Origin: Patescibacteria group bacterium
Lineage (GTDB): Bacteria > Patescibacteriota > Patescibacteriia > S139-126 > S139-133
DNA: 64,000 bases
Assembly (NCBI GenBank): GCA_049604715.1
Contig: JBMYTV010000004.1
Location: 22,535 to 86,534 of the forward strand
Reading direction: 5' to 3'
A model generated the notes under the pieces. The model saw only the letters and a list, made by a program, of their open reading frames with translations, ran no database searches and was not told the origin of the DNA. The translations under genes were made by a program, and so were the position numbers. Shown here in pieces: positions 24,004 to 42,631 of this stretch. Numbering within the stretch: position 1 is the stretch's first letter; the number at the start of each line of letters is the position of its first letter.

Positions 24004-24363
24004 ATGTCTAAGAAAAAAGTTATCAATACTCGTGTATCTGAAGAGCTATACGATAAAATATCTAAAAAGGCCGAAGAGCATCGTGTCACGGTCTCTAACC
24101 TAGTAAGAAACCTAGTCGAAGACGTTGTTGAGATACATGGCGATCTTTCTGATGTGTTCGACAAAAAATTAAGAAAGACATTGTTTGATAAAGATGAAGA
24201 CAGTATTTTAGGTCATCAAGAAATAACTCTCAATAAAAACACAGATTGCGACGTGTGTGAAAAACAAGTCAAAAAAGGCGCTAAAGCCTTTGTTGAGATT
24301 TACGAACAGTCAAACAGTAAAAGTGTTGTTTGTGAGGCTTGTAAAAAGAAAAGGGTAAAGTAA
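24004..24363 (+). CDS. ribbon-helix-helix (CopG/Arc/MetJ-type) DNA-binding protein with C-terminal Cys4 zinc ribbon
   Basis: INTRVSEELYDKISKKAEEHRVTVSNLVRNLV RHH pattern; CDVCEKQ...CEACKKK. Confidence 0.6.
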   Translation: MSKKKVINTRVSEELYDKISKKAEEHRVTVSNLVRNLVEDVVEIHGDLSDVFDKKLRKTLFDKDEDSILGHQEITLNKNTDCDVCEKQVKKGAKAFVEIYEQSNSKSVVCEACKKKRVK

Positions 24364-24369
24364 AAAAAT

Positions 24370-25752
24370 ATGATAAAAAGATTTTTTATCATTTTGAATA
24401 TTCTAGGCAAATGGTATTGGCGTTCATTCATTAGAATACGCTCTGCTGATGATGTATCTAACCAAAAAAGAGCGCAGACACTTCGTGAATCACTTGAGCA
24501 TCTTGGCTCAGTTTTTGTGAAGTTTGGGCAGCTACTTGCCATGAGACCTGATATACTTTCTCGTGCTTACTGTCGAGAGCTTTTTTATTTACTTGATGAT
24601 GTTCCGCCTTTTTCATCAGAGATTATCAAAAGAACCATAGTAGAAGATTTTGGTAAGAGCCCAGAGTTTTTATTCGAATCATTTGACGAATCGCCAATTG
24701 CAGCAGCTTCCTTTGGTCAAGTCCATACAGCAGTTACTAGAGATAAAGAGAAAGTAGCAGTGAAAGTACAGCGACCCAATATAGAATTTATAGTAGAAAG
24801 AGATATAAAGTTGATGAAAGTTCTGGCACGAGTGATAGATGTGTTTCGAGTTGGGGTGAATAAGTTAGCTCCAATAGTTAAGGAATTTGAGATGTGGACC
24901 AGAGAAGAGCTTGATTATGAAGTTGAAGCAAATTACACACAAAGATTTCATAAGCAGACTTCGAGCGATGGCATTTATGCTCCTAAGGTGTATAAAGACT
25001 TATCATCCAAACGAGTTTTGACGGCTGAATATGTACCAGGAGCTGCTCTTAGTAAAATTTTAATAGCATATAGAGATCAAAACACAAAGACCATGGAACA
25101 GGTTGAGGACTGGGGATTTTCTCGAAAGGATGTGGCTTTCCAGTTGCTTCGCAATTCAACCAAGCAAATTTACCTTGAAGGCTTCTTTCATGCAGATCCC
25201 CATCCAGCAAATATTATCTTTACTCCTGAAAAGAAGCTCGTATACATTGATTTTGGAATTGTAGGGGAGCTTGGTAGGAGGGAGCGGCTAAAATGTCTCC
25301 GTTACACTAGGTCCGCTATGTATGGCGAGGAGGATCACTCTTTCGATGCGTTAGTTGAACTGTGTGATACAAGCAAGGTTAAGGACATGAATAAATTCAA
25401 GGAAGAGCATTCGGAAATAATTAGAAAAACTTTACAGATGTTCAACAAAGCTAAAGAGACAGGAACGTCTCAAATAGTAGGTAAGAAGTTAGTTGCTACA
25501 CTTCAGCTGCTTCAAAAGCATGGCGCTAGAATACAGACCAATACTATGAGATATTTCCGAACGCTACTCGCAGTAGATAGTTTGATTCTTGAGGTATACC
25601 CCGAAATGGAGCTTAAAGATATAGCACGGAGGTTTCGCAATGTCTCCATTGCAAATATAATTCAAGAATTACCAGATCATTTAGACGCCGAGACATTTGA
25701 AAAAGATATTCTTAAATGGTTGAGTATACTTGAAACCGAGTTGATTAAATAG
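24370..25752 (+). CDS. ABC1/UbiB-family atypical protein kinase
   Basis: FGQLLAMRPDIL, AAASFGQVHTA, KVQRP, FFHADPHPANI. Confidence 0.8.
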   Translation: MIKRFFIILNILGKWYWRSFIRIRSADDVSNQKRAQTLRESLEHLGSVFVKFGQLLAMRPDILSRAYCRELFYLLDDVPPFSSEIIKRTIVEDFGKSPEFLFESFDESPIAAASFGQVHTAVTRDKEKVAVKVQRPNIEFIVERDIKLMKVLARVIDVFRVGVNKLAPIVKEFEMWTREELDYEVEANYTQRFHKQTSSDGIYAPKVYKDLSSKRVLTAEYVPGAALSKILIAYRDQNTKTMEQVEDWGFSRKDVAFQLLRNSTKQIYLEGFFHADPHPANIIFTPEKKLVYIDFGIVGELGRRERLKCLRYTRSAMYGEEDHSFDALVELCDTSKVKDMNKFKEEHSEIIRKTLQMFNKAKETGTSQIVGKKLVATLQLLQKHGARIQTNTMRYFRTLLAVDSLILEVYPEMELKDIARRFRNVSIANIIQELPDHLDAETFEKDILKWLSILETELIK

Positions 25753-27031
25753 CGAGTTTAACTTTTCTATCCAACAAGGTTAACCGATTTCTCAGACAAG
25801 AGAGCAGTTCACGCTTCTCGACAATGTTTCCATTTGTAAGAATATATTTTGCATAATTTTTCATATCGGTTTCCTTGCTCAGTTTTGGTTTAGCTTCATC
25901 TAGCCCGAACACACTTTGTCTAAATTTGTAGTACCGTTCCACTTCTTGCTGGAGTTTGTTTTGTATCCCGAGTTTGTCAATAGTGAGTCTATCTATTAGC
26001 TCAAGTATTTGGTTTACCAAATTTTCTTCTCTTATATATAGTGCCTCACACTTCTTATCTCTCGATCTCGTACAGCCATAATATACATACCTATTCTTGG
26101 TTCCGTCTTTACGATACTTAAACTTTTCTTGCGCTGTAATGCCGGATCCACACTTTCCACAAACCATGAGTCTGGTAAAAGCAAACTCTTTGCTACGATA
26201 CTGAAACTCGTGATGTACTTTTATCTGTGCTTGCACTTGATCGAACAGTTCTTTTGAAACTAGAGGAGTATGTATGCCTGTATACCAGTTACCACTTTTT
26301 CTAGGATATTCAAATACTCCGTAGTAGAAGGTGTTTTTGAGTATGATATAGATATTACTGAGTGATAAATGTTTTCCGTTTTTAGTTTTGAAGTTTATTT
26401 CATCTCTGAGCCAGTAAAACAACTTCCTGCCGCTCCATTTTTCGTGTGCTACTTTTTCAAACATTTGCTTGATAATATGCCCTCGTTCCGGGTCTACCAT
26501 CATATGACATTTCCTATCACTACGTTTCTCATTTAGATACCCCGTAGGAGCAACTCCTGGTCGCAAACCCATTTCTGCTTTTGCTTTCATGCCTCTTTTA
26601 ACGTTAAGACCTCTATTATCATTCTCAAGCTTCGCTTGACTACCAAGAATCATCAGTAGAAACTTCTCATTAGGGGAGTTAGTAAATGTTTGCCCGTACG
26701 TTCTGATCTCTAGAAGATGCTTTCTATCCATGAGGTCGACCACAGATCCCAAATCCCCAGCATTACGAGCTAGTCTATCAGGCGCCCATGTCAGTATTCC
26801 GTTGAATTGGCCTTTGCCAATATCTACTAGTAGCTGGTTGTATACTGGTCGCTTACCGGACTCTTTGGCTGAATGTGCCTCTTGTCTTATTTCAACTACA
26901 TTCAGGTTTTCTCGTTTTGCCAGAGTGGTCATTTCCTTGATCTGTGAATCAATGGAAAGGGCTTGTTTTTCATCACTCTCGCTTGATTTACGAGCATACA
27001 AACAGTACTTAATTTGGGGTTGTTCAGTCAT
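25745..27031 (-). CDS. large serine recombinase (integrase/resolvase family)
   Basis: N-terminal catalytic YARKSSESDEKQALSIDSQ, recombinase domain, Cys4 zinc ribbon CGKCGS...YYGC...KKCEA, C-terminal coiled coil; 428 aa; convergent 8-bp overlap with the kinase gene. Confidence 0.85.
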   Translation of the reverse strand: MTEQPQIKYCLYARKSSESDEKQALSIDSQIKEMTTLAKRENLNVVEIRQEAHSAKESGKRPVYNQLLVDIGKGQFNGILTWAPDRLARNAGDLGSVVDLMDRKHLLEIRTYGQTFTNSPNEKFLLMILGSQAKLENDNRGLNVKRGMKAKAEMGLRPGVAPTGYLNEKRSDRKCHMMVDPERGHIIKQMFEKVAHEKWSGRKLFYWLRDEINFKTKNGKHLSLSNIYIILKNTFYYGVFEYPRKSGNWYTGIHTPLVSKELFDQVQAQIKVHHEFQYRSKEFAFTRLMVCGKCGSGITAQEKFKYRKDGTKNRYVYYGCTRSRDKKCEALYIREENLVNQILELIDRLTIDKLGIQNKLQQEVERYYKFRQSVFGLDEAKPKLSKETDMKNYAKYILTNGNIVEKRELLSCLRNRLTLLDRKVKLAI

Positions 27032-27102
27032 ACTATTTTGGTTAGTTATTAATTTCTAACCACATTGATGACGCAACCCTGCTAGTGAGTCCAGGATACT
27101 TG

Positions 27103-27122
27103 AGTCGATAAACTGTTGGTAA
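27103..27122. repeat. 20-bp direct repeat, copy A (AGTCGATAAACTGTTGGTAA)
   Basis: 19/20 identical to 37704-37723; lies 72 bp upstream of the recombinase start. Confidence 0.5.
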
Positions 27123-27172
27123 GTTTTAAGCCTTGATGTGGGTTATCAATCTGTCCCTTGTAACTATTTCAT

Positions 27173-27201
27173 TCGACAAATAGCATTGTTTTGACTATAA
27201 T
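27173..27201 (+). promoter_or_regulatory. sigma70-like promoter candidate
   Basis: TCGACA, 17-nt spacer, TATAAT; 28 nt upstream of the 27230 ATG. Confidence 0.4.
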
Positions 27202-27229
27202 GTTAAACAACTCATCAAAGTAGAAATAT

Positions 27230-27880
27230 ATGTTTAATAACAAAACCAAATCACAATTTAAGAAACTGACCATACTCTCAACAGTAGTTGCTGGGATACT
27301 ACATGTAACTTTGGCTTCTTCTCAGCACTCTGCAATACCACCAGAGATGGTTTTCTTTATTTTGGCAGGACTAGCACAGGTTGCTTGGGCGATTGTTTTC
27401 ATGAAGAAACAATCTGATGTGATGTACTACTTTGGCATAGTTATTAATGGTGGCTTATTGGTTGTCTGGGCACTTACTCGTATTTTACCTGCACCATTTT
27501 TAAACGAACCTGAGCATATAGGTACGCTGGATCTAATCATAGCGTTGATCGAAGGGTTAGCAATCTTCACTTTGGTTGTATGGCATGAAAAAGTAAGCCA
27601 TTTACCATCTTTGGTAGTCCGCTTTTCATTAGCAGCTTTGATAGCTTTGGTAATCGGATTTTTTGGATATTATTCAAGCATGGCTGCTACTAGATTTTTT
27701 CCAGATATAGAGGTGGTTGATCACCATGGGGTTGAAATAGGTGATAAACATGCAGATGATGGCCACGATAATGAGAACGAGGTTGACGAAATGCATGAAG
27801 TTGTGGATAATAAAGCTGATTCTACACAGGAGGTAGGGGATGATCAGAGGCATGATGATACAGATGATCATCATGATTAA
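27230..27880 (+). CDS. polytopic membrane protein with His/Asp-rich C-terminal tail (putative metal-binding)
   Basis: 5-6 TM helices; tail HHGVEIGDKHADDGHDNENEVDEMHEV...QRHDDTDDHHD. Confidence 0.45.
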   Translation: MFNNKTKSQFKKLTILSTVVAGILHVTLASSQHSAIPPEMVFFILAGLAQVAWAIVFMKKQSDVMYYFGIVINGGLLVVWALTRILPAPFLNEPEHIGTLDLIIALIEGLAIFTLVVWHEKVSHLPSLVVRFSLAALIALVIGFFGYYSSMAATRFFPDIEVVDHHGVEIGDKHADDGHDNENEVDEMHEVVDNKADSTQEVGDDQRHDDTDDHHD

Positions 27881-27887
27881 TATTCAT

Positions 27888-28304
27888 ATGGCAAGTAAAA
27901 ATACCTACAATTTATACGGTATCGCATTGACTGCTTGTTTTATATTGGCAGCGATTATATTACCTATGTGCCAGACGTACATGATGGATCATGCTAATAT
28001 GGCGCATACAGAACAGGCACAATGCTGTGGTGCTGACGAGTCAAATAGCGAGCTGGTCGCAGCTCATCACATTGCTTACTTCAAGACAATGTATAATGGG
28101 TTAGCAAGTAAGGGCACATTCGCTTTACTTCTTGGATTGGCAGCTTTATTTTTCGTATCGGCATTCCTGGTCTGGTCGCGTAAAGATTTCTCTCATGTAT
28201 TTCAACGGTTAGAACACCATTCAAAACTACCAGAGATACCACTGTGGAATTTTCTACAGATGGCGTATGCTCAAGGGATAGTTCAGAGTAAGCACTTGGA
28301 TTAA
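27888..28304 (+). CDS. membrane protein, hypothetical
   Basis: 2-3 TM helices; CC pair; start taken at the internal ATG after the previous stop. Confidence 0.4.
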   Translation: MASKNTYNLYGIALTACFILAAIILPMCQTYMMDHANMAHTEQAQCCGADESNSELVAAHHIAYFKTMYNGLASKGTFALLLGLAALFFVSAFLVWSRKDFSHVFQRLEHHSKLPEIPLWNFLQMAYAQGIVQSKHLD

Positions 28305-28379
28305 CAATATACGTTCACGTTTTTTAGTTGTGTCAGTTTTTTTGCTGATACACATCTTTATTAATCTAACGTAACGTAT

Positions 28380-29153
28380 ATGGACAAACCAAGTGTTTTT
28401 GACGTTATAGGGCCTGGGAAAACCTTTGGTCTCGGTATCGTCACTGCGATCCTCATAATTTGTACTATTGGATTTTTCGTTCTTTTGAGCGGTAAGTTCG
28501 ACGGCACAGCTACAGCCAAAAGTACAGATACCACTCAAGTAGTAAAAACTGGAACTCAACCAACGCCAACACAACCAACCGCACCACAGCCTGCAGGAAC
28601 TGGTGAAATACAATTAGCAGCTGTCACTGAAAGTGATTGGGTAAAAGGAAACCGTAATGCAAAAATCAGCATTGTGGAGTTTTCTGATACAGAATGTCCT
28701 TTTTGTAAACGATTCCACCCAACCATGCAGCAAGTCATTGATACGTATGGTGATGATGTGAATTGGGTCTATCGGCATTTTCCGCTAGATTCTCTTCATC
28801 CAACTGCACGTAAGGAAGCAGAAGCTACTGAATGTGCAGGTGAACTTGCTGGCAATGATGGTTTCTGGGCATATCTTGATCGATTGTTTGAAGTTACTCC
28901 ATCAAATAATGGTTTACAGCTTTCACAACTCCCGCAAATTGCTGAAGATGTAGGAATTAATAGAGCAAAGTTTGAAGAGTGTCTTGATTCAGGAAGGCAC
29001 GCTAATGCGGTACAAGAAGAATATCAGCAGGCCGTAGCTGCCGGAGGAAGAGGTACTCCTTATTCAGTATTGGTGGTTGGTGATGAAAATATACCAGTTT
29101 CAGGTGCAGTGCCATTTGAACAGTTGAAATCAATTATTGATTCTCAATTATAA
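28380..29153 (+). CDS. DsbA-like thiol:disulfide oxidoreductase, membrane-anchored
   Basis: N-terminal TM, Pro/Thr-rich linker, thioredoxin-fold active site CPFC. Confidence 0.75.
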   Translation: MDKPSVFDVIGPGKTFGLGIVTAILIICTIGFFVLLSGKFDGTATAKSTDTTQVVKTGTQPTPTQPTAPQPAGTGEIQLAAVTESDWVKGNRNAKISIVEFSDTECPFCKRFHPTMQQVIDTYGDDVNWVYRHFPLDSLHPTARKEAEATECAGELAGNDGFWAYLDRLFEVTPSNNGLQLSQLPQIAEDVGINRAKFEECLDSGRHANAVQEEYQQAVAAGGRGTPYSVLVVGDENIPVSGAVPFEQLKSIIDSQL

Positions 29154-29162
29154 ACTTAAGAG

Positions 29163-29738
29163 ATGATGAAGAAATACATTTCACAAGTAGTAACTGCAAT
29201 GAAGCAAGTATTTAGTACGTGGCAGTACTGGTTAGTAAGTCTTGGAGTGGCAGCAATGATAGTTCTGATAACAATTTTGCTTTCACAATACCAATTCATT
29301 GCTACCATTCTTGATTCAGAGCTGTTTGATTCAAAAGTGAAATTCAAAGCAATACTCAGTTCTTTGGGATCTTTCCAAACTAATTTGACGCTAGAAGATC
29401 AAGTCTTTGCTGTGGCCATAGCATTACTTTCGGGAGTTACTATGGCAATTGTTGTGTATTACTTTAAGCATAGATTTTCCCTTCAAATGGCAACTGGTAC
29501 GAGCTTTTTGGGAGTCTTGGTTGGATTGTTTGGTGTGGGATGTTCTGCGTGCGGATCGGTAGTTGTTTCTACTATTTTTGGAATCGGAGCAGCAAGTGCT
29601 TTTTTAGGAGCATTGCCATTCAAAGGAACTGAGATAAGTATATTGAGCATACTGATATTACTTGGCTCAATATACATGATTGCAAAGAAAATAGTTTCAC
29701 CAGATGTGTGTGAAATAAAACCTTCTTCATCGTCTTGA
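29163..29738 (+). CDS. membrane protein with Cys-rich motif, hypothetical
   Basis: 4 TM helices; GVGCSACGS motif. Confidence 0.4.
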   Translation: MMKKYISQVVTAMKQVFSTWQYWLVSLGVAAMIVLITILLSQYQFIATILDSELFDSKVKFKAILSSLGSFQTNLTLEDQVFAVAIALLSGVTMAIVVYYFKHRFSLQMATGTSFLGVLVGLFGVGCSACGSVVVSTIFGIGAASAFLGALPFKGTEISILSILILLGSIYMIAKKIVSPDVCEIKPSSSS

Positions 29739-29759
29739 GACACTTTAAAGACGAATTAT

Positions 29760-30581
29760 ATGAAAAATAAGAAATACTTTATTGGAGGAATAGTAGTCCT
29801 TGTGCTTATCATTGGCGCTTTTATGTTAGGTAAAGGTGAGACCAATGAAGCGCAGGCACAGGGCAAGTTAGAAGTAGCTGAAACACATTATGACTTTGGT
29901 ACAATTGGTCTTGATAATGTAACCCATCCTTTTACTGTGAAGAATATTGGTGCAGGACCTCTAACCATTGAACGAGTATCAACATCATGTGGCTGCACTA
30001 CAGCCCAACTTAAGCAGGGTAGCAAAACCAGTGTTCAGTTTGGTATGGACCATGGAAATTTGCCAAAGGCCAACATGACCTTGCAGCCAGGCGAAGAAAC
30101 CGAAGTATTAGTGACATATAACCCACTAGCACATGGATTAAATAACGCAGCAGGACATTTTCGCAGAATTGTTTATATTCAGACCAGTAATCCTAAAGAA
30201 GAACATGAACTCATAGTTGAGATGACGGTTGATCCTGATAAAAAAACAGCACAGGAAGCTCAAATAGAATTTGATAAGCAGTCGTATGACTTTGGTCAAA
30301 TTCCAAAAGAGGGTGGTGTAGTAGAAACGACATTCACTGTATTTAATCGGGGTGGAGAAAGTCTGGCTATCAGTGATATCACCACTTCATGTGGGTGTAC
30401 TAGTGCGGAAATTGCATCAGAAAATATCCGGCCTAATGGTTCTACTAAACTAACTGTTCGGTTTGATCCTGATTTTCACGATGAACCACAAGGCAAGCTA
30501 GAGAGAATAGTCACGCTATTTACCAATGACCCAGAAAACCCTGAGGCTAATGTAGAAATATATGCTGAAATTATTGAATAA
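29760..30581 (+). CDS. DUF1573-like repeat protein (two CGC-containing beta domains), membrane-anchored
   Basis: Duplicated YDFG...STSCGCTTAQ / YDFGQ...TTSCGCTSAE modules. Confidence 0.55.
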   Translation: MKNKKYFIGGIVVLVLIIGAFMLGKGETNEAQAQGKLEVAETHYDFGTIGLDNVTHPFTVKNIGAGPLTIERVSTSCGCTTAQLKQGSKTSVQFGMDHGNLPKANMTLQPGEETEVLVTYNPLAHGLNNAAGHFRRIVYIQTSNPKEEHELIVEMTVDPDKKTAQEAQIEFDKQSYDFGQIPKEGGVVETTFTVFNRGGESLAISDITTSCGCTSAEIASENIRPNGSTKLTVRFDPDFHDEPQGKLERIVTLFTNDPENPEANVEIYAEIIE

Positions 30582-31785
30582 GCTCATAGTCTTTGTCGGT
30601 ATTGGCTTTTTGTTGGCGACCCCTGCTTTTGTTTCTGCTCAACAATCATTTTCTTCAGCTGAAGTTTATTACAACGAAGCATGTGGTGGGTGTAATGTCT
30701 ATTTGCAGGAAAAGTTAATCCCATATCTTGAAGAGCAGGGGTTAGTCGTAGAAATGCATGATTATGTAAACGACAAACAGGCTCGTAAAGACATGAATGC
30801 ATTTCAGGAACGTCTTGGAATTCCGTATGAGCTGCAAAGCCATATCATGACCTTTGTTGATAATGGAAAGTTGGTAATTGGTGGTCATGTGCCACTGGAA
30901 AGGGTAGAGGAGCTGTTTGCTGCAGGTGCATTACCTGACCAACTTGTAGTGTACCAAGATCAGATGCTTGAAATGGGGATCAACCCTGATACGGTGTCGT
31001 ACACGATTTGGCAACCTGATGTTGAAGTAAAAGAGTATGAATTAAATGAACCACTAACTACTTATTTGAGTGAGTGGGAAGTAGGGTCCCTGCAGCCAAG
31101 TAAATGGCAAGAAAAATCATTGTTACCGTTGGTACTGACGACCGGGTTGGTAGACGGATTGAATCCATGTGCATTTGCAGTACTGCTATTTTTTATAGCG
31201 TTCCTGTATTCAATCAGACGGTCGACCAGGCAAGTTTGGTTGATGGGCGCAACGTATATTGCTGGAATTTATCTGATTTATCTCAGTATTGGTCTTGGGT
31301 TATTTCAAGCAGTTACCATTTCCAGTCAACCTCACTTTATTGCTAAAGTGGCAGCGTGGTTAATTATTGGATTAGGTGGTTTGACGGTAACACAACATTT
31401 GTTCCCGCAGTTACCATTTAGATTTCGATTACCATCTTTTTCCAAAGTCACCATTAAAGAATGGCTAACAAAAGCTACCTTACCAGCCAGCTTTATTGCT
31501 GGTGTGATAGTGGGGTTGTGCACATTTCCGTGCTCAGGAGGGATTTATGTAGCAGTTGTGAGTATGTTGACTACGCAGAGTACGTTTGCGAAAGGATTAG
31601 GCTACTTAGCTGTGTACAATGTGATGTTTGTGGTACCACTTATTGCCATTTTGCTCGCGGTTGGGAATAAAAAGTCAGTTGAAAAGGTTGAAACATGGGA
31701 AAAGAAAAAAGCCGGGATGTTCAAATTAATCAGTGGTGTAGTTATGGTTTTGTTGGGACTTAGCATTTTGATTTGGTTTGTTTGA
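30562..31785 (+). CDS. thioredoxin-like domain fused to a CcdA/DsbD-type transmembrane thiol-disulfide transporter
   Basis: N-terminal CGGC; TM core with LNPCAFAVLLFF and TFPCSGG motifs. Confidence 0.7.
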   Translation: MLKLLNKLIVFVGIGFLLATPAFVSAQQSFSSAEVYYNEACGGCNVYLQEKLIPYLEEQGLVVEMHDYVNDKQARKDMNAFQERLGIPYELQSHIMTFVDNGKLVIGGHVPLERVEELFAAGALPDQLVVYQDQMLEMGINPDTVSYTIWQPDVEVKEYELNEPLTTYLSEWEVGSLQPSKWQEKSLLPLVLTTGLVDGLNPCAFAVLLFFIAFLYSIRRSTRQVWLMGATYIAGIYLIYLSIGLGLFQAVTISSQPHFIAKVAAWLIIGLGGLTVTQHLFPQLPFRFRLPSFSKVTIKEWLTKATLPASFIAGVIVGLCTFPCSGGIYVAVVSMLTTQSTFAKGLGYLAVYNVMFVVPLIAILLAVGNKKSVEKVETWEKKKAGMFKLISGVVMVLLGLSILIWFV

Positions 31786-32236
31786 TGATAACTATATGAC
31801 AGTTGTATTTATTTCACTAACAGTCATACTGGCAATTTACTTCATCATAGCCTTTTCTCCACTTAAGGTGTGTGCGATTTGTTCTGCGGTGAGCATGACA
31901 TGGCTTGGCTTGTTGTTAACGTATATGCTTGGCATGCATGAAGAGATAGTTTGGTTGGGAGTACTCATGGGGGGAAGTGTAGTTGGATTGATGTACAAGC
32001 TTGATAGTTACTGGAAAGAGAAAAAGTATTCAGGTACATGGCTGCTCAAACTAACAATTATTGTGTTTGGTTTTTTGACCGTCTATGTAGTCGTGAACAC
32101 ACTGTGGACAGATTTTTTCTGGCTTGTGCCATCCATGGTTGTTGTGAGCACGATCGGGGTCATGCTTCTCAGAAGTAATAAGGAAGACAATGTATCTTCA
32201 AAATTACAAAGTAAACTTGATCATTGTTGTGATTAA
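31778..32236 (+). CDS. membrane protein, hypothetical
   Basis: 4 TM helices; CAICS motif. Confidence 0.35.
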   Translation: MFDDNYMTVVFISLTVILAIYFIIAFSPLKVCAICSAVSMTWLGLLLTYMLGMHEEIVWLGVLMGGSVVGLMYKLDSYWKEKKYSGTWLLKLTIIVFGFLTVYVVVNTLWTDFFWLVPSMVVVSTIGVMLLRSNKEDNVSSKLQSKLDHCCD

Positions 32237-32255
32237 GAATGTAATCTACTGAACT

Positions 32256-32528
32256 ATGGTAACAAAAGACCAAACAAATAAAGAAAAAGCACTTGATAGT
32301 ATTGGATGCGCCAAAGCCAAAGTAAGTAAGATGTTGGTTATGATTGAACACAATGATGATGTGATGACGATAATCCATGAGTCAGAAGCTACCAGACGGG
32401 CATTAAAACGTGCTGACCGCATGATCATCAAACGACATCTGGAGAAAGTTGCGTATGAACAACGTGGTCATACGGGCCAAGCCACTGCACGGGAGTTATT
32501 ATCGTTACTCAAATTTTGGCTAGATTGA
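32256..32528 (+). CDS. CsoR/RcnR-family (DUF156) metal-sensing transcriptional repressor-like
   Basis: 90-aa helical protein with conserved Cys (IGCAK) and His (IIHES) positions in the CsoR-like pattern; heads the copper operon. Confidence 0.45.
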   Translation: MVTKDQTNKEKALDSIGCAKAKVSKMLVMIEHNDDVMTIIHESEATRRALKRADRMIIKRHLEKVAYEQRGHTGQATARELLSLLKFWLD

Positions 32529-32552
32529 TTACTAACCTTAAATAGCTATGTT

Positions 32553-33134
32553 ATGAATTTCAAATTACTAATTATTTTGCTGCTCATCATAGGCGGACTC
32601 GGTGTGCTCTGGTCAGTTAGTAGTTTCTTTAGTAGTAAAGGAAATGATAAGTTGGTTCAAAATCAGGAGAACTTTGAGCGAGCAATAAATGCTGAACTCC
32701 CTGATAAGTGTCAGACACCTGTAGGGTATACTAATGATGAATGGCTGGGACATATGTCGCATCATCCAGATAGGTATCAAGAATGTTTGCAGGAAGTTGA
32801 TCTGGATGCTATAGCACGTAAAGATATAGGTTCACAAGATCTGGCATTAATGCTTGAACAAAAAGACTTTGTGTTAATTGATACTCATATTCCAGAGCAA
32901 AAACACATTCCCGGAACTGACGTGTTTATTTCTTTTAACGAAATTACAGACCAACTTTCGCAGTTGCCTCAGGATAAGAATGCAAAGATCGTATTATATT
33001 GCCGTAGCGGCAATATGAGTGAGCGCGCTTCTCAGGATTTGATTGAGCTGGGTTACACCAATGTATACAATTTAGTTGGTGGAACAAATGCTTGGCAACA
33101 GGCTGGTTACTTGGTTGAGGATGTTTCACTATAA
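32553..33134 (+). CDS. rhodanese-domain sulfurtransferase, membrane-anchored
   Basis: Active-site loop YCRSGNMS; NLVGGTNAWQQAGY. Confidence 0.75.
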   Translation: MNFKLLIILLLIIGGLGVLWSVSSFFSSKGNDKLVQNQENFERAINAELPDKCQTPVGYTNDEWLGHMSHHPDRYQECLQEVDLDAIARKDIGSQDLALMLEQKDFVLIDTHIPEQKHIPGTDVFISFNEITDQLSQLPQDKNAKIVLYCRSGNMSERASQDLIELGYTNVYNLVGGTNAWQQAGYLVEDVSL

Positions 33135-33139
33135 TAGGC

Positions 33140-33592
33140 ATGAAAAAAGAACTTAGAAACAAAGCTTTATTGTGGGGAGTTATAGCAATACTTGGTATGA
33201 CATTGTTTTATATAGTGATCATGTTACTAACCATGTCACCCAGTGAAGCTTGGTTAAATTTTATTAGCCTCTGGCACTATATCGTAGGAATTATTGTTGG
33301 TTTTGGAATACAGGTTGGATTGTGGGTATATATAAAGAACTGTGGTAAGAGTAGCGCTCATGGAGCAATGCCAGGAGCAAGTGGCACCATGTCTGGCACG
33401 GCCATGGTTGCGTGTTGTGCGCATCATTTAACAGAAGTATTGCCAGTATTTGGGTTAACTGGAGCGACTATATTTCTTACGCAGTATCAAAAACCCTTTC
33501 TCATACTCGGTGTATCAATTAATATTCTTGGTATTGCATATATGCTTCAAATCCTACAGAAGCACCAAAAAATAACTATTAACAGTGAATAA
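33140..33592 (+). CDS. membrane protein with CC-HH motif, hypothetical
   Basis: 4 TM helices; MVACCAHH. Confidence 0.35.
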   Translation: MKKELRNKALLWGVIAILGMTLFYIVIMLLTMSPSEAWLNFISLWHYIVGIIVGFGIQVGLWVYIKNCGKSSAHGAMPGASGTMSGTAMVACCAHHLTEVLPVFGLTGATIFLTQYQKPFLILGVSINILGIAYMLQILQKHQKITINSE

Positions 33593-33983
33593 TTGTATGT
33601 CCAACTACGGATATTCCAAACGATTACAAGTTTCTTTTGATGAAGCGGTTGAACGAGCAGTAACTGCACTCAAAGAGCAAGGGTTTGGTATACTGACAGA
33701 TATAGACGTAAAGGAGACATTGAAGAAAAAATTAGACGTGGATTTTAAACAGTATCGCATTTTAGGAGCATGCAATCCACCTCAAGCGTATAAGGCATTG
33801 CAGTTAGAGGAAGAGCTTGGCTTGTTGTTGCCGTGTAATGTGATTGTGTATGAAAAAGATAGTGATGTAATAGTGTCTGCTTTAAAGCCGAGCGTTGCGT
33901 TCACAATTGTAGAAAATACACAACTTGAGTCAGTAGCTTCAGAGGTTGAACAAATATTAAAACAAGTGATTGATAACGTATAA
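33585..33983 (+). CDS. DUF302-family protein
   Basis: [25 protein letters not shown]...ILGACNP pattern. Confidence 0.5.
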
Positions 33984-36222
33984 AAATATGGCAAAGAAAA
34001 TACAACTAAATATTGAAGGAATGCATTGTGCGTCGTGTGTTGCACATATTGAAGGAGACCTTAAGAAAAAAGAGGGTGTTAAAAGCGCACGAGTCAATTT
34101 TGCAACTGAAACAGGGCAAGTTGAATTTGATGAATCACAGGTTAGCCAAGAAGACATTGTCCAGACAATAAAAAAGACTGGTTATAGCGCAACTCCTTTG
34201 GAAGAACCGTCACATGCTCATCATACGGAACATGGCCATGACAATTCTCATGACCATTCAGCTAGTTCTGGGCAGGATCATTCTGCTCACGCAAGTGCTG
34301 AAAGTGACCGTCAGGTAAAGGACAGGTTGAAGAAAGTAGTTATCGCAGGGGTATCGACTATAGGCATTCTTATTTTGATGGCGGTGCATATCGAGAACGG
34401 GATGTTTATCATGCTGTTGCTTTCATTAGGCGCTCTCTGGGCTGGACAAGAGTTTTTCAAAGTTGGATTTCCGGCACTACTGCGGGGTAGGCCAGATATG
34501 AATACATTGGTTGCACTTGGTGTAACAGCTGCCTTTTTATACTCAACCTACGCAACATTGTTCAATCCAGAACTTGGCGAATACTTTATGGACGTTGGTA
34601 TCATTACTACGTTTATTTTACTTGGACGCTACTTGGAAGCGCGGGCAAAAGGAAAGGCTTCAGAAGCAATTAAAAAGTTATTACAGTTATCTGCCAAAGT
34701 TGCACATAAAGTCGTGCGAGAAAATACAACACAAGATATTCCAGTTGATCAGGTTCAAAAAGGTGATGTGTTGCTCGTCAAGCCAGGAGAGAAAATTCCA
34801 GTTGATGGTGAAATAGTAAAAGGTACCGCAACGGTTGACGAATCAATGGTCACTGGCGAAAGTATTCCAGTTGATAAAAAGGAGAAAGATCAGGTGATAG
34901 GCGCTACTATCAATGGAAATCAGACATTTACTATGAAAGCTCGGAAAGTTGGTTCTGAAACAGTGCTCGCTCATATAGTGAAGCTAGTGCAAGAAGCTCA
35001 AATGTCCAGGGCACCAATACAAAAGCTGGTTGATAAAGTTTCAAAGTATTTTGTCTGGGGAGTGATCATCATAGCTATTGCTACGCTTGCAGGATGGATT
35101 AGTTTTTCAGGCGAAGCAGCACGCGCTTTGATTTACACTGTTGCTGTCCTGATTATTGCCTGCCCCTGCGCTTTAGGTCTGGCAACTCCAATATCTATTG
35201 TAGTTGGTACTGGTCGCGGTGCGTCTTTGGGTATTTTGATTAAAAATGCTGAGGCTCTTGAGAAAATGCATAAAATAACAGTGGTTGCTTTTGATAAAAC
35301 TGGAACAATTACTAAAGGACATCCAGAAGTGCAAGAATGGGTACAGATAAGCAAAGATGCTGATGCGTTACTTCCGGCAGCGCTATCTCTCGAGTCTCAG
35401 TCAGAACACCCACTGGCCAAAAGTATTGTGGACTGGTTTGCTAAGGAGAAGAATGCACTAAAACCATACAACCTTTCTGAGGTTAAGGCAGTCACAGGTA
35501 AAGGTATTGAGGGTAAAGATGAGAATAAAATCTATCGAGTTGGTAGCATAAAGTTTTTATTAGAAAGCAAAGTTACTGTTACTAAAGAGAACAAAAACAA
35601 CATTGAGACCTATGCACAAAAAGGACATACCATCATAGGCTTTGCCAAAGATGGGGAATTGGTAGGTTTCTTTGCTGTTCAGGATGGGCTCAAGGAATCT
35701 TCTGTTGAAGCTATTACTATTCTCAAAAACAGAGGCATCAAAACAGTTATGCTAACAGGAGATAATGAGGCAGTGGCAAAAGAAATAGCTCGTCAGGTGG
35801 GTATTGATGAGGTTAGGGCTGAAGTCATGCCAGAGGATAAAGTGAGCGTTATCAAAGAACTGCAAGACAAGGGTGAATTTGTAGCAATGGTCGGTGATGG
35901 TATTAACGATTCACCGGCACTTGCACAAGCGAATGTCGGTATTGCTATGGGTACAGGAACTGATGTTGCAGTAGAGACAGGAGACGTTGTGTTGGTTAAG
36001 GGTGATCTTATGAAAGCAGCTGAAGCAATCGGTCTATCTGAGGCTACACTTAAAAACATTAAGCAAAATCTTTTTTGGGCTTTTATATACAATACAGTTG
36101 GTATCCCGATTGCGGCTTTGGGATTCTTAAGCCCAGCGTTCAGTGCTGCTGCTATGGCTTTTAGCAGTATTTCAGTTGTATTAAATGCTTTGCGGTTAAA
36201 GAAGGTTAAGATGACAAAATAA
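33970..36222 (+). CDS. copA: copper-translocating P1B-type ATPase
   Basis: [11 protein letters not shown], His-rich linker, [30 protein letters not shown]. Confidence 0.9.
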
Positions 36223-36226
36223 TTTC

Positions 36227-37699
36227 ATGAAATTCAGAGCTATTATTAGTATTGTCGTATTTGCATTGATTGCAGGAGGTGGTGTGTGGTTGTATAAAAA
36301 TCAACAAAATACGGAAGGTGTTATTCGGCAAACAAATAGCGATATCAGTAACATCAAACAAGGTTTGCGCAAAGAATTTGCAGATGCTTATGAGAAAGAC
36401 AGCGTACCAAGTGGAAAGGTGGTAGCTTTTGACATGATTGCTGAGCCTAGTACTGTTGAATTATTTACTCAAGATGATGTGGGACTGGAGTTAGATGATT
36501 ATACAACCAGTGTGTGGACCTATAATGGTACGGTGCCAGGTCCTGAGATTAGGATAAAGCTTGGTGATACATTACGACTCAATTTTACTAATAATTTACC
36601 ACAAGAAACGACAGTGCATTTTCATGGCGTGCGAGTGCCAAATGCTATGGATGGAGTGCCAGGAATAACGCAAGAACCTATACAACCGGGCGATAGTTTT
36701 GTATATGAATTTACTCCAAAAGACGCAGGTACCTTCTGGTTTCATCCACATGTGAAGACATCAGAGCAGATGGAACGAGGACTATATGGAACACTGATTG
36801 TCGAGGACGAGATAGACGATCAATACACTCAAGATGTCACATGGGTAATAGACGATTGGAGAATTGGACAAGATTTGCAAATAGATCCAAACTTTAATAC
36901 CATGCATGATTTAATGCATGATGGCAGGTGGGGAAATGTTGTTACAGTTAATGGGAAGCTAGACGAGAAGCTATATGTTAAACCCGGTGAGAGAATCCGT
37001 CTTCGCCTGGTAAACACATCGAATGGACGAGTTTATGTGCCTGTTTTTGCTGGGCTAAAACCTATGGTGATAGCAGTTGATGGAATGTACGTCAAAGAAC
37101 CATTCTTGCTAGATAGATTTGAGCTAGCGCCAGGCAACCGACTTGATATTGATATTACAATTCCGGATAATGAAAGGACGTTCATTGTTTCTGACTATTT
37201 TGGACGTAATGTAAATCCATTAGGTGAGATTATTTCAGAAGGTGCAGTAGTAGCTACACCAGATTTTGAGTATCCGCATAATGATAAAGTTCCTGAATGG
37301 AATGATGTTGCTATTCTCCCTATAAATAAAGAGTATCGATTAAACGCTCGTCGCAAAAGCGGTCATGGCGTGATGGGTGGTATTGAATGGACCATCAATG
37401 ATAAAGCGTTTCCCGAATATGATCCATTTACTTTTGCCTATGATGAAATAAATATCTTTCAGTTTACTAACGAGTCTGCACGCTTGCACCCAATGCATCT
37501 ACATGGACAATTTTTCAAAGTTATTTCCAAAAATGGCCAGATAGCTAATGAAGAATATTTTCGTGATACAGTCTTAGTAGGATCAAAAGAAACAGTAGTT
37601 TTGGCTACCGTACCTCTCGATAAGGGTTCATGGGTTAACCACTGCCATACTCTTGAACACGCTGAAGCTGGGATGCTAACTGTTGTAGAAGTAGAATAA
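36227..37699 (+). CDS. multicopper oxidase
   Basis: HFHGVRVP, WFHPHV, HPMHLHG, HCHTLEHAEAGM copper-site motifs; N-terminal TM/signal. Confidence 0.85.
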   Translation: MKFRAIISIVVFALIAGGGVWLYKNQQNTEGVIRQTNSDISNIKQGLRKEFADAYEKDSVPSGKVVAFDMIAEPSTVELFTQDDVGLELDDYTTSVWTYNGTVPGPEIRIKLGDTLRLNFTNNLPQETTVHFHGVRVPNAMDGVPGITQEPIQPGDSFVYEFTPKDAGTFWFHPHVKTSEQMERGLYGTLIVEDEIDDQYTQDVTWVIDDWRIGQDLQIDPNFNTMHDLMHDGRWGNVVTVNGKLDEKLYVKPGERIRLRLVNTSNGRVYVPVFAGLKPMVIAVDGMYVKEPFLLDRFELAPGNRLDIDITIPDNERTFIVSDYFGRNVNPLGEIISEGAVVATPDFEYPHNDKVPEWNDVAILPINKEYRLNARRKSGHGVMGGIEWTINDKAFPEYDPFTFAYDEINIFQFTNESARLHPMHLHGQFFKVISKNGQIANEEYFRDTVLVGSKETVVLATVPLDKGSWVNHCHTLEHAEAGMLTVVEVE

Positions 37700-37703
37700 G
37701 CGC

Positions 37704-37723
37704 AGTCGACAAACTGTTGGTAA
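37704..37723. repeat. 20-bp direct repeat, copy B (AGTCGACAAACTGTTGGTAA)
   Basis: 19/20 identical to 27103-27122; 4 nt after the multicopper oxidase stop. Confidence 0.5.
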
Positions 37724-37997
37724 CTCGCCTTCGCAAGAAGGTGAGAATGAGCTAGTATACACTGGACTTTTAGGTCTATTAGAGCTAAAATGTCATTGAC
37801 AATTGAGATTACCTAACCCCATAAATATTCGTGTTTATGGGCATGGTAGAAAGACTCGTGAAAGATACTGAACCCTGCGTTCAGCGCTTTCACGAGCCAT
37901 ATGGGGAAACTCATATGGGTCCGCAAGGACCAGCTGGCGTGGGGCTTTGTGTTTCCATAGCCAGCGAGCTTAATAATAGTCTACTAACTACACATCT

Positions 37998-39059
37998 ATG
38001 GATACACTATTCCTCCTCTTAATGTTTGGATCAGTTATCTCTTTAATGATCGGACTGATCAAACCTAGTATATTTGAAAAATTATTCAAAAGCATTCCCA
38101 CTAGAAAAAAATTAGCTGGCATCTTTGGTGGAGCAACCATCTTTTTCTTTATTGCTTTCGGCATTACAACTCCTCCAGTTGAACCAACCGAAGAGAACGC
38201 TACTAATATTACTCAACAGGAAGCAGCGGTTGAGACTCCTGAACCAAATAAGATTACTGAATCTGAGGAAGTTATAGATGATACTTCAGAGGCACCTACT
38301 CAGGTCAATAACAGTTTGCAAACGAGTGACGCTAATGAATTAGTTAACAGTCAAAAGTCACAACAAGAAAACACTGAAAACCAAGTACAGCCAGTAGAAA
38401 GTAATAATGAACAATTCTATTCAGTAACCAGCGTAGTAGATGGTGATACAGTAAAAGTAAATATCAATGGAACTACAGAAACCCTCCGCCTCATAGGTAT
38501 AGACACTCCAGAAACCGTCCATCCCTCAAAACCAGTTGAGTGTTTTGGAAACGAGGCGTCAAACAAAGCTAAAGAATTGCTTAGTAACAAACAGGTAAGA
38601 CTGGAATCGGATGTTTCTCAAGGCGAACGTGACGTATATGGTAGATTGCTATCGTATGTATTTTTACCTGACGGCACTAACTTCAACCAACTCATGATCC
38701 AAGAGGGATATGCGTATGAATACACCTACAATATTCCATACAAATATCAATCAGCATTTAAACAGGCACAAACAGACGCACAAAATAACAAACGTGGTTT
38801 GTGGGCAGATGGTGTATGTGACGAATACGAAGACGAGCCAGTAGCAGTTGAACCAGAAGAAACAACTCCACCACCAACTGAGCCAGCTTCAGATGGATAT
38901 AAGTGGTATGTGAGTAGTCACCATAGCTCTAAGCAATACTACTGCGAAACAGATGATGGTTGGAGAGGGTTATCTGAAAGTTATCTGAAAGAATACACTT
39001 CAGAAGCGGCACTTCTAGCAGACTTTCCTAATCACACACTCAATGAGCCATGCAAATAG
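37998..39059 (+). CDS. membrane-anchored thermonuclease (staphylococcal nuclease-like) with C-terminal extension
   Basis: VVDGDTVKV...LRLIGIDTPE...ECFGNEAS...RLESDVSQGERDVYGRLLSYVF...EGYA SNase pattern. Confidence 0.75.
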   Translation: MDTLFLLLMFGSVISLMIGLIKPSIFEKLFKSIPTRKKLAGIFGGATIFFFIAFGITTPPVEPTEENATNITQQEAAVETPEPNKITESEEVIDDTSEAPTQVNNSLQTSDANELVNSQKSQQENTENQVQPVESNNEQFYSVTSVVDGDTVKVNINGTTETLRLIGIDTPETVHPSKPVECFGNEASNKAKELLSNKQVRLESDVSQGERDVYGRLLSYVFLPDGTNFNQLMIQEGYAYEYTYNIPYKYQSAFKQAQTDAQNNKRGLWADGVCDEYEDEPVAVEPEETTPPPTEPASDGYKWYVSSHHSSKQYYCETDDGWRGLSESYLKEYTSEAALLADFPNHTLNEPCK

Positions 39060-40550
39060 TTAAAACGTCATGTCTCGTATACCAGCCATTATGGGTCTGC
39101 AGTTTTTAGTCATAAGACGATCCCAGTTAATTCTGGCTCTAGTTATCCCAAGCGCATAATTAGCTGCCATAACAAACGCATCTACTAAATCATCATATCG
39201 CTCTGAACCAAAGAAGAGTATTTGATTAATCAACTCTTCAGCACCTTCTTCGGGGAATACAATAACACCTTCTTTTATTGCAACACTTATTTCTGCTAAG
39301 CGAGATCGTTTGTCCATGCCTTGTGGTGAGACTCCTTTGGCTGGATAACCTTCTCTGCCCAGGTCATCAACCAGCCAAGCCTGGGCAGCCACATCTTCAA
39401 TCAATAGTTTGGATAAGTTTTCACCACCGAGTTGTTCAGACAATGCTTTTGCTTGGGTGCGAATATCAGAAATATTCAATCGCTTGTTGATGGGATTTGG
39501 TAGCACATAGATCCTAAAGTTTTCGTCATAGCCATAGACCTTTACAGAAACCATGGCTGTTTTGTCTGCTGAATCCTTTAATGATATAGCAGGATCAATA
39601 GCTGTGACTACTTGTCTAAATGGTCGTTTGTCATCTGTATCAGACGGCAGACTCTTGAAATAGTGTATCCATTCAGGCAACACCACTCTGCTGGCATCTG
39701 AAATGAAGTTGAGCATGTATTCACGTTGGAACGTAACTTCATTACCGGTTTTAAGTTTCAGTGACTCAATAGATTTTTGATCAGTAAACTTACCTGACCA
39801 CAACACTTTGTTTTCGTTATTGACTAGTGGATATTCTTTAAAGATCCCATTCATTTTGCGTGATTCAATACCTCGTCTGAGTCTCATGATAACAGAGTCT
39901 TCGTGGAGCAAGTTGCCAATGATTACAATATTGGTATCCTGATCTCCAGCAGGAAATACATCACCCAAAAGCCAGTTATATAACTTGTCCCGTGAGTCTC
40001 TGTTTTTCATGGAATTCAGATCTTCGATATCATCTGCAATGATAAGATCAGGTCTGTGTTCATAATGTCGTATACCACGAATACTTTGATCTGATGAAGC
40101 GACAGTAATTCGAGCATTGTATTGAGGAATGACAATAGAATACGAACCCCATTCTTCATTGGACTCTTCAAATGGTCCAAGGTCGCTTTTGAGTAGTAGA
40201 TTATGCTCAAGTTCCTGCTTTAGATTCATCATCATTTGTTTTGCTTTTTGTTGGGTTTGAGCAAGTATTACTATGAACTTCTTTTGTAGTTTTCCTAAGA
40301 TTGCCCAGATGGGCAGAGAAGTGGAGATAATAGTAGACTTGCCTGATCCTCTGAATGCGACAATAACTGCCAGAGGGATCTTGCCATCTTCGGTAATACT
40401 AAAGATTTCTTTTTGGAATGAAGCGGTTGGGTATTTCACGTAATGAGCAAAGTAGATGTTAAAAAACCAATAATGACTTTCATGTGCTAGAGATCTACGA
40501 ACTATTGGATCTTTCATAACTCGCTCAGCTACTTGTTTAGGATTTGTCAT
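39060..40550 (-). CDS. phage terminase large subunit
   Basis: Walker A AFRGSGKST, Walker B-like LIIADDIED, C-terminal nuclease-like half; 496 aa. Confidence 0.75.
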   Translation of the reverse strand: MTNPKQVAERVMKDPIVRRSLAHESHYWFFNIYFAHYVKYPTASFQKEIFSITEDGKIPLAVIVAFRGSGKSTIISTSLPIWAILGKLQKKFIVILAQTQQKAKQMMMNLKQELEHNLLLKSDLGPFEESNEEWGSYSIVIPQYNARITVASSDQSIRGIRHYEHRPDLIIADDIEDLNSMKNRDSRDKLYNWLLGDVFPAGDQDTNIVIIGNLLHEDSVIMRLRRGIESRKMNGIFKEYPLVNNENKVLWSGKFTDQKSIESLKLKTGNEVTFQREYMLNFISDASRVVLPEWIHYFKSLPSDTDDKRPFRQVVTAIDPAISLKDSADKTAMVSVKVYGYDENFRIYVLPNPINKRLNISDIRTQAKALSEQLGGENLSKLLIEDVAAQAWLVDDLGREGYPAKGVSPQGMDKRSRLAEISVAIKEGVIVFPEEGAEELINQILFFGSERYDDLVDAFVMAANYALGITRARINWDRLMTKNCRPIMAGIRDMTF

Positions 40551-42277: not shown

Positions 42278-42607
42278 AAGCGTATATGGTTAGTAATTAA
42301 TAAACAAACAAAAAAGGGCCTAAAACAAACCCACTTAACGCAAATAATGCGAAATAGATTTATTTTAGGCCCCGGTCAACGAACAGGAACGAGATGTTCC
42401 CACGCCTTCATACGCCGCAGAGTCTATACGATAACCAACCGCCAGGCTACAAAGCCTTGTATGGCGCCGGTTGATTAAAGATTAATTGTAATGTCCTAGT
42501 ATTAGGGTAGCATATTGCTCAATAACGTTCAAGTCTTGACTGTTGGGGATAAAAAGAGTATGCTAGCAATAACAACAAATGACAAGAAATGATAACAAGT
42601 AACAAGA

Positions 42608-42619: not shown

Positions 42620-42631
42620 CTATTTGCTCAT

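Follow-up and report, generated by a model that had tools for sequence, protein, structure and literature searches.

A copper and thiol gene cassette between direct repeats at the LOOT RNA–serine recombinase spacer of a Patescibacteria genome

How the tiny genomes of the candidate phyla radiation (CPR) gain accessory traits is poorly understood, and the locus described here points to a recurrent, precisely placed point of gene entry. A stretch of 64,000 nt of Patescibacteria DNA (the window; contig JBMYTV010000004.1) contains a block of copper and thiol genes that is bracketed by two nearly identical 20-bp direct repeats and lies beside the gene for a large serine recombinase. The question is what these repeats are and whether the recombinase has to do with them. 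The original prediction, made from the letters of the window, held that the repeats bracket exactly the metal and thiol genes and could allow the cassette to be excised or deleted, by the adjacent recombinase or by homologous recombination. Our analysis suggests that the two 20-mers are very probably the junction copies of one conserved insertion site. The account as a whole, with catalysis by the adjacent recombinase included, we regard as probable. Three points go beyond the earlier interpretation: the distal repeat lies in the upstream region of a gene for LOOT RNA; the 20-mer consists of two units, the first of which is the core; and the recombinase gene is located outside the cassette.

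The proximal repeat (DR1, AGTCGATAAACTGTTGGTAA) occupies positions 27103–27122 and the distal repeat (DR2, AGTCGACAAACTGTTGGTAA) positions 37704–37723. A pattern search with the 20-mer finds DR1 with no mismatch and DR2 at 19/20 (T>C at position 7); at up to three mismatches these are exactly the two matches in the window, both on the + strand. DR1 ends 71 nt from the start codon of the recombinase and DR2 starts 4 nt past the stop codon of a multicopper oxidase gene (37699), in agreement with the predicted spacing (72 and 4 nt) and with the description of the pair as intergenic at the edges of the module. Markov simulations of the window give 0.2–0.5 direct 19/20 pairs per 64 kb, so the earlier estimate of 0.1–0.3 was fair, and one other such pair (24349/53097, A-rich and trivial) is present in the real window. 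The repeat alone is therefore not significant. The intergenic share of the window is 5.4%, and the expected number of chance 19/20 pairs that are intergenic at both copies is about 0.001; it is this position that sets the pair apart. The original prediction had called for a search for further copies of the 20-mer. A scan of 185,579 species-representative genomes (596 Gb) with AGTCGAYAAACTGTTGGTAA gave one match only, inside a coding region of an unrelated Sulfuricurvum metagenome-assembled genome (MAG). With this single match and no extra copy in the window, the 20-mer was rejected as a genome-wide motif. It was also rejected as a promoter or terminator element: neither copy overlaps a promoter hexamer or terminator predicted in the window, the predicted promoters being downstream of each copy and no terminator being predicted at either.

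Alignment with relatives resolves the 20-mer into two tandem units of about 10–11 nt. On the recombinase strand, DR1 reads as unit 1 (TTACCAACAG) followed by unit 2 (TTTATCGACT). Other examples of tandem units are AGTTACCAACA-AGTTACCAACG in L084 and GTTGCCAACAT-GTTGCCAACAG in L048 (L-numbers denote loci of relatives, including 80 metagenomic recombinase loci and 60 on IMG/VR viral contigs). The single mismatch between DR1 and DR2 falls in unit 2, unit 1 being the same in both.

The recombinase gene (25745–27031, − strand) encodes a protein of 428 aa and is located outside the segment bounded by the repeats. The protein contains Resolvase (PF00239, 8.6e-22), Recombinase (PF07508, 3.1e-13) and Zn_ribbon_recom (PF13408, 2.5e-10) domains and matches the integrase family phrog_95 in PHROGs (1.9e-62). 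The catalytic-serine motif YARKSS (residues 12–17) aligns with YLRRSR of SPbeta SprA, and SPbeta SprA/YokA is the closest solved structure. A catalytic domain with its serine, followed by Recombinase and zinc-ribbon domains, defines the large serine recombinases, and all of these are present. The family is large, with >8000 homologues scored; below the six closest, the 114 listed homologues are 61–68% identical and their named sources are mostly Patescibacteria/CPR. The database source of the protein itself is ‘MAG: Patescibacteria group bacterium’, and it is the sole copy of the family in the window. Two copies of the family are found on several predicted viral contigs of 24–55 kb (L093/L094, L090/L112, L121/L127, L106/L128, L129/L131 and L145/L146), which may reflect tandem units.

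The motif follows the recombinase gene from genome to genome. In relatives whose recombinases are 93, 82 and 79% identical, a motif resembling the 20-mer (CGTCGATAAACTGTTGGTAA, GATTGGTAAAGTGTTGGTAA and AGTAGACAAATTGTTGGTAA, respectively) is located 72–73 nt upstream of the start codon, and the genes on the motif side are wholly different among the three contigs. The core is found within about 150 nt upstream of the recombinase in many of the 80 metagenomic relatives (59–66% identity); its background rate in these loci is 1.4e-4 per nt. Overall, the distance between motif and recombinase in relatives is about 55–85 nt. These alignments argue that the motif belongs to the recombinase gene, whatever its neighbours.

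The distal repeat is followed by a structured RNA gene. An Rfam scan finds a LOOT RNA gene (RF03000; 37810–37933, the Rfam match itself spanning 37810–37931) on the + strand, 86 nt from DR2, with a score of 85.8 bits (gathering threshold 46.4) over model positions 1–121; a covariance model built here gives 100.9 bits. A LOOT promoter, TGGACT-17-TAAAAT, is predicted at 37763–37791 (+), and its hexamer blocks are conserved in the alignment of relatives. The relatives were searched with single-sequence nhmmer and then with a covariance model built from 16 copies. The window LOOT matched >20 of the 80 metagenomic loci by nhmmer, and the covariance model finds LOOT in 43/80 metagenomic recombinase loci and 19/60 IMG/VR viral-contig loci; Rfam confirmed all 15 of the 15 relatives tested (68–96 bits). 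LOOT is also present in the relative with the 79% identical recombinase. In an alignment of 55 LOOT copies taken from recombinase loci, pairing holds in 97.5% of cells and both sides vary in 23 of the 26 pairs. The covariation score of 0.912 compares with 0.25 in shuffles and with no more than 0.17 in slid structures; these values somewhat favour the structure, as the alignment was fitted to the model. Membership in LOOT is judged by a full-model score above the threshold and by compensatory changes, and both are observed. A break in a Logan contig at 37760–37775, between DR2 and LOOT, was considered as a sign of heterogeneity and found uninformative, as similar breaks occur inside the cassette and in a tRNA.

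LOOT and the recombinase are found in three layouts. In the first (19 metagenomic loci), they are divergent neighbours 138–262 nt apart with a single copy of the site between them. In the second (14 metagenomic loci, one of them with LOOT on the strand of the recombinase), the gap between them is 0.5–6.5 kb; six IMG/VR loci have gaps of the same size, and the gap in the window is 10.8 kb. In the third (10 loci), LOOT shares the strand of the recombinase gene and comes after its stop codon, at a distance of 36–66 nt in nine (L010, L011, L012, L014, L020, L025, L033, L055 and L087); the recombinase open reading frame (ORF) of the tenth is mis-called. The short gap of this third layout holds a TATAAT-like box, and the core, in some loci with an element resembling the left arm described below, is still upstream of the recombinase. 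Many of the empty pairs come from long contigs (up to 188 kb), and their 21-kb loci hold one recombinase gene and one LOOT each. An ‘open’ arrangement, in which recombinase and LOOT are the inward-facing ends of an element, was considered for three viral loci with a convergent LOOT about 6 kb downstream and was set aside: the recombinase side of L110/L111 mismatches the core beside LOOT. The LOOT junction of L110/L111 resembles the LOOT side of another unit, which runs off the contig.

The window can be converted to the first layout on paper. Positions 27020–27122 joined to 37724–37819 are colinear, on both sides of the 20-mer, with the empty spacers of L008, L009, L013, L032 and L054; deletion of 27123–37723 thus restores the empty arrangement. 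On the recombinase strand, the joined product runs from LOOT through the LOOT promoter blocks, the TTGCGAAG hairpin, GAG-TTACCAACAG-TTTATCGACT and CTGGACTCnCT...GGGTTGCGTCATC to the recombinase ATG, and the junction of the reconstructed site reads ...TCCAGGATACTTGAGTCGAYAAACTGTTGGTAACTCGCCTTCGCAAGAAGG.... In the window, 85 nt separate the core from the 5′ end of LOOT and 81 nt separate it from the ATG; the corresponding distances in empty sites are 52–111 nt (mostly 83–100) to LOOT and 40–152 nt (mostly 40–104) to the ATG. Both arms of the site are conserved. The right arm with the recombinase upstream region (27061–27102, − strand, CAAGTATCCTGGACTCACTAGCAGGGTTGCGTCATCAATGTGG) contains the blocks CTGGACTC...TTGCGTCATC, which align in empty-site, insert-bearing and type B relatives. 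The left arm (37724–37745, + strand) is a hairpin, CTCGCCTTCGCAAGAAGGTGAG, which contains the family-wide CTTCGCAA (TTGCGAAG on the other strand) and is kept between site and LOOT in both empty-site and insert-bearing relatives. A similar left-arm element (TTTTCGAAGG / TTTTTGAGGG) is located beside the core in several type B loci without LOOT upstream. Compared with this widespread single-copy arrangement, the copper module is an insertion, and its target is the intergenic spacer between LOOT and recombinase.

The same anatomy recurs at other occupied sites. At the LOOT-side junction the left arm and unit 1 are followed by divergence into the insert; at the recombinase-side junction the insert is followed by unit 1, unit 2 and the right arm. 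This identifies unit 1 as the duplicated part. In the window, and more loosely in L023, a stretch resembling unit 2 is also supplied by the insert, which gives the 20-nt repeat. Of 21 insert-bearing loci, 12 have a core with at most two mismatches to GTTACCAACAG in the expected slot beside LOOT and 7 have one in the slot beside the recombinase; 5 loci have both. Variant cores flank inserts on both sides elsewhere (AGTTGTCTAC in L059 and a 49-nt repeat in L030). A natural comparison is offered by L039, which is empty, and L030, which is occupied by 3.9 kb; they are syntenic on both sides at 70–82% identity. One 24-nt stretch of L039 matches both copies that flank the L030 insert, where the imperfect direct repeat of 49 nt includes the palindrome TGCATAGCTATGCA. 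These alignments show insertion exactly at the conserved site, with duplication of its core.

Cargo was annotated in a subset of the inserts, with 30 of the 45 called insert ORFs scanned. L070 carries a Gabija-like pair, an OLD-family ATPase with a UvrD helicase, L034 a type III and L056 a type II restriction-modification system. Others carry an AAA_13 protein (L067), an HNH nuclease (L076), an SMC-like protein (L024) or an M23 peptidase (L030). ParB-methylase modules form the insert in L006, L023, L026, L059 and L066, and the first three of these also have a confirmed terminase gene. The annotated cargo of the different loci is unrelated, and none of the 30 scanned ORFs yielded a resolvase or integrase domain.

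The cargo of the window consists of 13 co-oriented ORFs (27123–37703, + strand), and the Pfam assignments agree with the metal and thiol genes that were originally listed between the repeats. Two membrane proteins with no assigned function (27230–27880 and 27840–28304) are followed by a DsbA-like protein (28380–29153), an ORF (29163–29738), DUF1573 (29760–30581), a CcdA/DsbD_TM-like protein with a weak Pfam match (30562–31785), an ORF (31778–32236), a CsoR-like protein (32256–32528), a rhodanese (32553–33134), an ORF (33140–33592), DUF302 (33585–33983), a CopA-type P1B ATPase with an HMA domain (33970–36222) and the multicopper oxidase (36227–37699). Five of the ORFs are without any Pfam family, and Pfam identifies no recombinase domain among the cassette ORFs. 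The predicted promoter of the operon, TCGACA-17-TATAAT (27173–27201, + strand, 11/12 matches), is inside the cassette and downstream of DR1, so the cargo needs no outside promoter. A related copper module, with an oxidase 72% identical, adjoins a tRNA in another CPR genome. That locus, covered over 21 kb, yielded no LOOT and contains neither the core nor the left-arm motif, and hence the cargo is not intrinsically tied to the platform.

From this anatomy we propose that DR1 and DR2 are equivalent to the attL and attR of one site belonging to the adjacent large serine recombinase. In the basic layout, a single site would sit in a spacer of about 140–260 nt with divergent LOOT on one side and the recombinase on the other, in the order LOOT, LOOT promoter, left-arm hairpin with TTGCGAAG, unit 1 (GTTACCAACAG), unit 2, right arm (CTGGACTC..TTGCGTCATC) and recombinase ATG. 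A circular DNA whose partner site shared unit 1 would have recombined with the resident site; the partner site of the window would also have borne a stretch resembling unit 2. The result would be the observed module of 10,601 bp between two direct hybrid sites with a common core. The crossover would lie within unit 1 (CTGTTGGTAA on the + strand). Given the direct orientation of the two copies, the enzyme could cut the module out as a circle and leave a single site behind, probably with a directionality factor; the predicted junction of the circle is ...GTAGAAGTAGAATAAGCGCAGTCGAYAAACTGTTGGTAAGTTTTAAGCCTTGATG.... The cargo comes with a promoter of its own and a CsoR-like repressor and lacks a recombinase gene; it would thus be a passenger that depends on the resident recombinase acting in trans. 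Homologous recombination between the 20-nt repeats is possible, though it is not needed. The predicted tie between the repeats as cassette edges and the adjacent serine recombinase thus gains support from the conservation of the site in relatives and from the comparison of inserted and single-copy layouts. The direct copies may still allow the cassette to be excised.

A relative at about 84% nucleotide identity, known from two contigs of another sample (L003 and L150), allows the locus to be compared between strains. It shares the flanking genes, both repeats and LOOT, and at least the beginning and the end of the cassette are present. Each repeat is 19/20 between the two strains, and the adjacent cassette-side flanks have diverged. 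In both strains, all differences between DR1 and DR2 fall in unit 2 and none in unit 1, which would fit a crossover in unit 1 and a different origin of the two unit-2 copies. The original prediction had proposed to look for strain variants that lack the cassette; this relative keeps it, and other relatives have different cargo or none at the site.

Several observations weigh against the proposed account. The cassette is kept at about 84% identity and its GC content equals that of the flanks and host, neither of which suits a recent insertion; shared possession and equal composition both imply that the insertion is old. No empty or circular form of this strain's locus was observed, although no search aimed at such forms was made. 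The strict core is present on both sides of only 5 of the 21 insert-bearing loci. Classical att sites of large serine recombinases share a 2-bp crossover and have dyad symmetry. The junctions here share 10–49 nt, unlike a 2-bp crossover, and the site of the window subgroup consists of two tandem direct units between non-symmetric conserved arms with no clear dyad by eye; the 14-bp palindrome TGCATAGCTATGCA is confined to the L030/L039 subgroup. The recombinase is located outside the repeats, unlike in phages, integrative and conjugative elements (ICEs) or staphylococcal cassette chromosome (SCC) elements, and no recombination directionality factor was identified. An RHH protein encoded at 24004–24363 is one candidate for a small partner of the enzyme. 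Finally, the conserved blocks and arms could also serve the LOOT and recombinase promoters.

The alternative that survives best retains the repeats as att sites and gives them another history. The LOOT–recombinase pair would be the end of a prophage-like or satellite-like integrative element, and the copper module a decayed second element integrated in tandem. This second element would once have had its own recombinase, as in the accretion of cis-mobilizable elements (CIMEs) and ICEs or in pseudo-SCC, with no capture by a resident platform. A ParB-methylase and small and large terminases, located beside LOOT in the window and between LOOT and recombinase in relatives, are consistent with such an element, as are the 60 relatives on IMG/VR viral contigs, several of them with two recombinase copies. 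At some recombinase-side junctions the insert-side arm resembles the left arm of the platform (e.g., TTTTCGCAAAAA in L023), which suggests that the incoming sites derive from the same kind of site. We nevertheless regard this history as unlikely, given the absence of resolvase or integrase domains from the scanned insert ORFs, the lack of a second recombinase in the window and of a portal, capsid or tail gene after its terminase, and the many empty pairs on long contigs.

A second alternative, to which we give a rather low probability, takes the tandem units as an operator or upstream element of divergent promoters, perhaps the target of an autoregulating recombinase. Each promoter would have kept or regained its own copy, the cargo having arrived otherwise, for example, by homologous exchange between the LOOT and recombinase flanks, and the repeats would not be products of a crossover. 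Tandem direct units one helical turn apart are typical regulator binding sites, and the motif lies about 40 nt upstream of the LOOT −35 hexamer as well as upstream of the recombinase, amid conserved blocks. The conservation of both copies in the diverged relative and the lack of an evident dyad, expected at a crossover, point the same way. However, a regulatory element leaves unexplained why independent loci with unrelated cargo should have 10–49 nt duplicated precisely where the insertion took place, and why a single copy serves both promoters in empty sites; moreover, hotspots filled by homologous recombination create no flanking repeats. Chance similarity without function, for which the simulated rate of 19/20 pairs and the second, trivial pair could be quoted, is highly improbable, as both copies are intergenic, both are conserved across strains and the motif is found at the same positions in dozens of relatives, so that the comparative data contradict it.

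The proposed insertion at a fixed site by a recombinase acting in trans shares features with several known systems. SCC elements (SCCmec, pseudo-SCC and COMER) use large serine recombinases and one fixed site and are bounded by direct repeats of about 15–18 nt with the integration sequence; cassettes without a recombinase (ccr-less) gather at the same site and are moved in trans, and copper/mercury COMER elements and multicopper oxidase cargo are known. Short direct repeats are likewise present at both ends here (20 nt at 19/20; 10–49 nt in relatives). In contrast to ccr, which is inside the SCC element, the recombinase gene (25745–27031) is outside 27103–37723. The SCC target is the 3′ end of rlmH (orfX), whereas here it is the recombinase's own upstream spacer, with LOOT as the other flank and a Patescibacteria host. 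As in integrons, the recombinase is resident beside the primary site, the recombinase-less cargo inserted there is transcribed away from it, and cargo varies between platforms. Integrons, however, rely on the tyrosine recombinase IntI, a folded single-stranded attC, promoterless single-gene arrays and Pc; here a serine recombinase is paired with the GTTACCAACAG core at the junctions, the inserts are 0.5–11 kb and often multigene, that of the window has its own promoter, and no arrays were seen.

CIME/ICESt-type accretion also places non-autonomous DNA between att-type direct repeats beside a recombinase-bearing unit, and three related sites can coexist. It depends on tyrosine integrases and targets a host gene or tRNA; a serine recombinase and a spacer target are found here, with no conjugation genes. 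The phage serine integrases (phiC31, Bxb1 and SPbeta SprA) belong to the same family, have their site near the recombinase gene and, as here, terminases nearby; unlike the present case, their attL and attR share 2 bp, the integrase is inside the prophage and there is no fixed RNA neighbour. A structured RNA gene fixed beside a recombinase gene and its site is reminiscent of the IS110/IS1111 bridge (seek) RNA recombinases, but these are DEDD/RuvC-like + Tnp enzymes, and in a crude test LOOT and site showed no complementarity specific to their locus. No SCC, integron or CIME/ICE family fits. The locus would be a variation on the known site-specific cassette systems that has, unexpectedly, an RNA gene beside it, in bacteria about which little is understood.

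The place of LOOT in this arrangement deserves comment. The crude test just mentioned compared the longest exact matches between LOOT and site in either orientation, which are about as long within a locus (means 6.2–6.4) as between loci (5.9–6.4), and LOOT as a guide RNA is thus unsupported. An ORF is usually located 40–96 nt past LOOT on the same strand. The products vary; judged by their N-terminal sequences, many seem to be anchored in the membrane or to carry a zinc ribbon. BLASTP clusters 20 of them, including the SNase-domain protein of the window. A conserved hairpin, GCTGGCG...GCTTTGTGTT...GCCAGC, is located 3′ of LOOT at about 37934–37970. LOOT may act as a leader for the gene that follows it, as an independent small RNA or together with the recombinase. 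The boldest reading, which we advance tentatively and regard as doubtful, is that LOOT, site and serine recombinase make up one functional unit, a widespread cargo-capture system of CPR that would resemble an integron in its operation and differ from it in its components. LOOT would then take an active part in recombination, whether it regulates the reaction, sets its directionality as a cofactor or helps to select the site. When viral contigs were scanned with a strict LOOT pattern, four loci emerged, namely two already known, one with a 38% identical relative of the recombinase and one without a recombinase, which are too few to conclude from. On LOOT function, the literature searched offers only its discovery list and one structural remark. 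Nothing in that literature links LOOT to a recombinase or describes the CPR recombinase family; the supplement of the 2017 discovery paper was outside the search, and an earlier mention there is possible.

With this linkage of site, recombinase and LOOT, the orphan RNA acquires a concrete genomic partner for the first time. A single, very widespread family of recombinases serves the entry point, which has received copper resistance here and Gabija-like, restriction-modification and terminase modules in relatives. The system is compact, with a recombinase of about 430 aa, a site of about 90 bp and an RNA of about 125 nt. A serine recombinase with a shared core of 10–20 nt, and possibly an RNA partner, would be of interest to genome engineers.

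The window is chromosomal DNA of a Patescibacteria (CPR) MAG and encodes an isoleucyl-tRNA synthetase (IleRS), two class II aminoacyl-tRNA synthetases of the D/K/N family, a ClpB-like ATPase and a tRNA cluster. Downstream of LOOT, an SNase-domain protein (Pfam) with a hydrophobic N-terminus is encoded at 37998–39059 (+). It is followed on the − strand by a large terminase (39060–40550; phrog_38, 7.7e-73), a small terminase (40537–40962; PHROGs small-terminase families) and a ParB-methyltransferase (40955–42277; phrog_498 and Pfam). This trio is co-oriented with the recombinase, lies outside the repeat-bounded cassette and is next to an S24 repressor-like gene; it could be a satellite-like packaging module. 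A structural phage module was not found, the ORFs tested at 43.3–50.8 kb giving no portal or capsid match; the ORF at 44002–44922 has a weak match to a tail family (phrog_7043, 1.5e-06). Pilus assembly genes (T2SSE and T2SSF) are located at 51.4–54.2 kb.

Upstream of the ParB-methylase gene, about 350 nt of non-coding DNA (42278–42631) contain GC-rich inverted repeats, which may form a structured leader. A degenerate third copy of the site (about 42526–42548 or 42608–42621) was suggestive by eye in this region and was set aside, as the alignment with relatives is unconvincing. Positions 43000–47100 have a low GC content (0.30–0.36 versus about 0.40 elsewhere) and hold four ORFs without a significant Pfam family; located beside the S24 gene, this stretch may be further foreign DNA. 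In the IleRS-like protein (1216–4743, + strand, 1175 aa), a His_Phos_1 domain is inserted at residues 508–682. A direct repeat of 264 nt with 71% identity (55954–56217 and 57523–57786) is found inside an ORF of 1167 aa (54658–58161), which suggests a duplicated protein domain.

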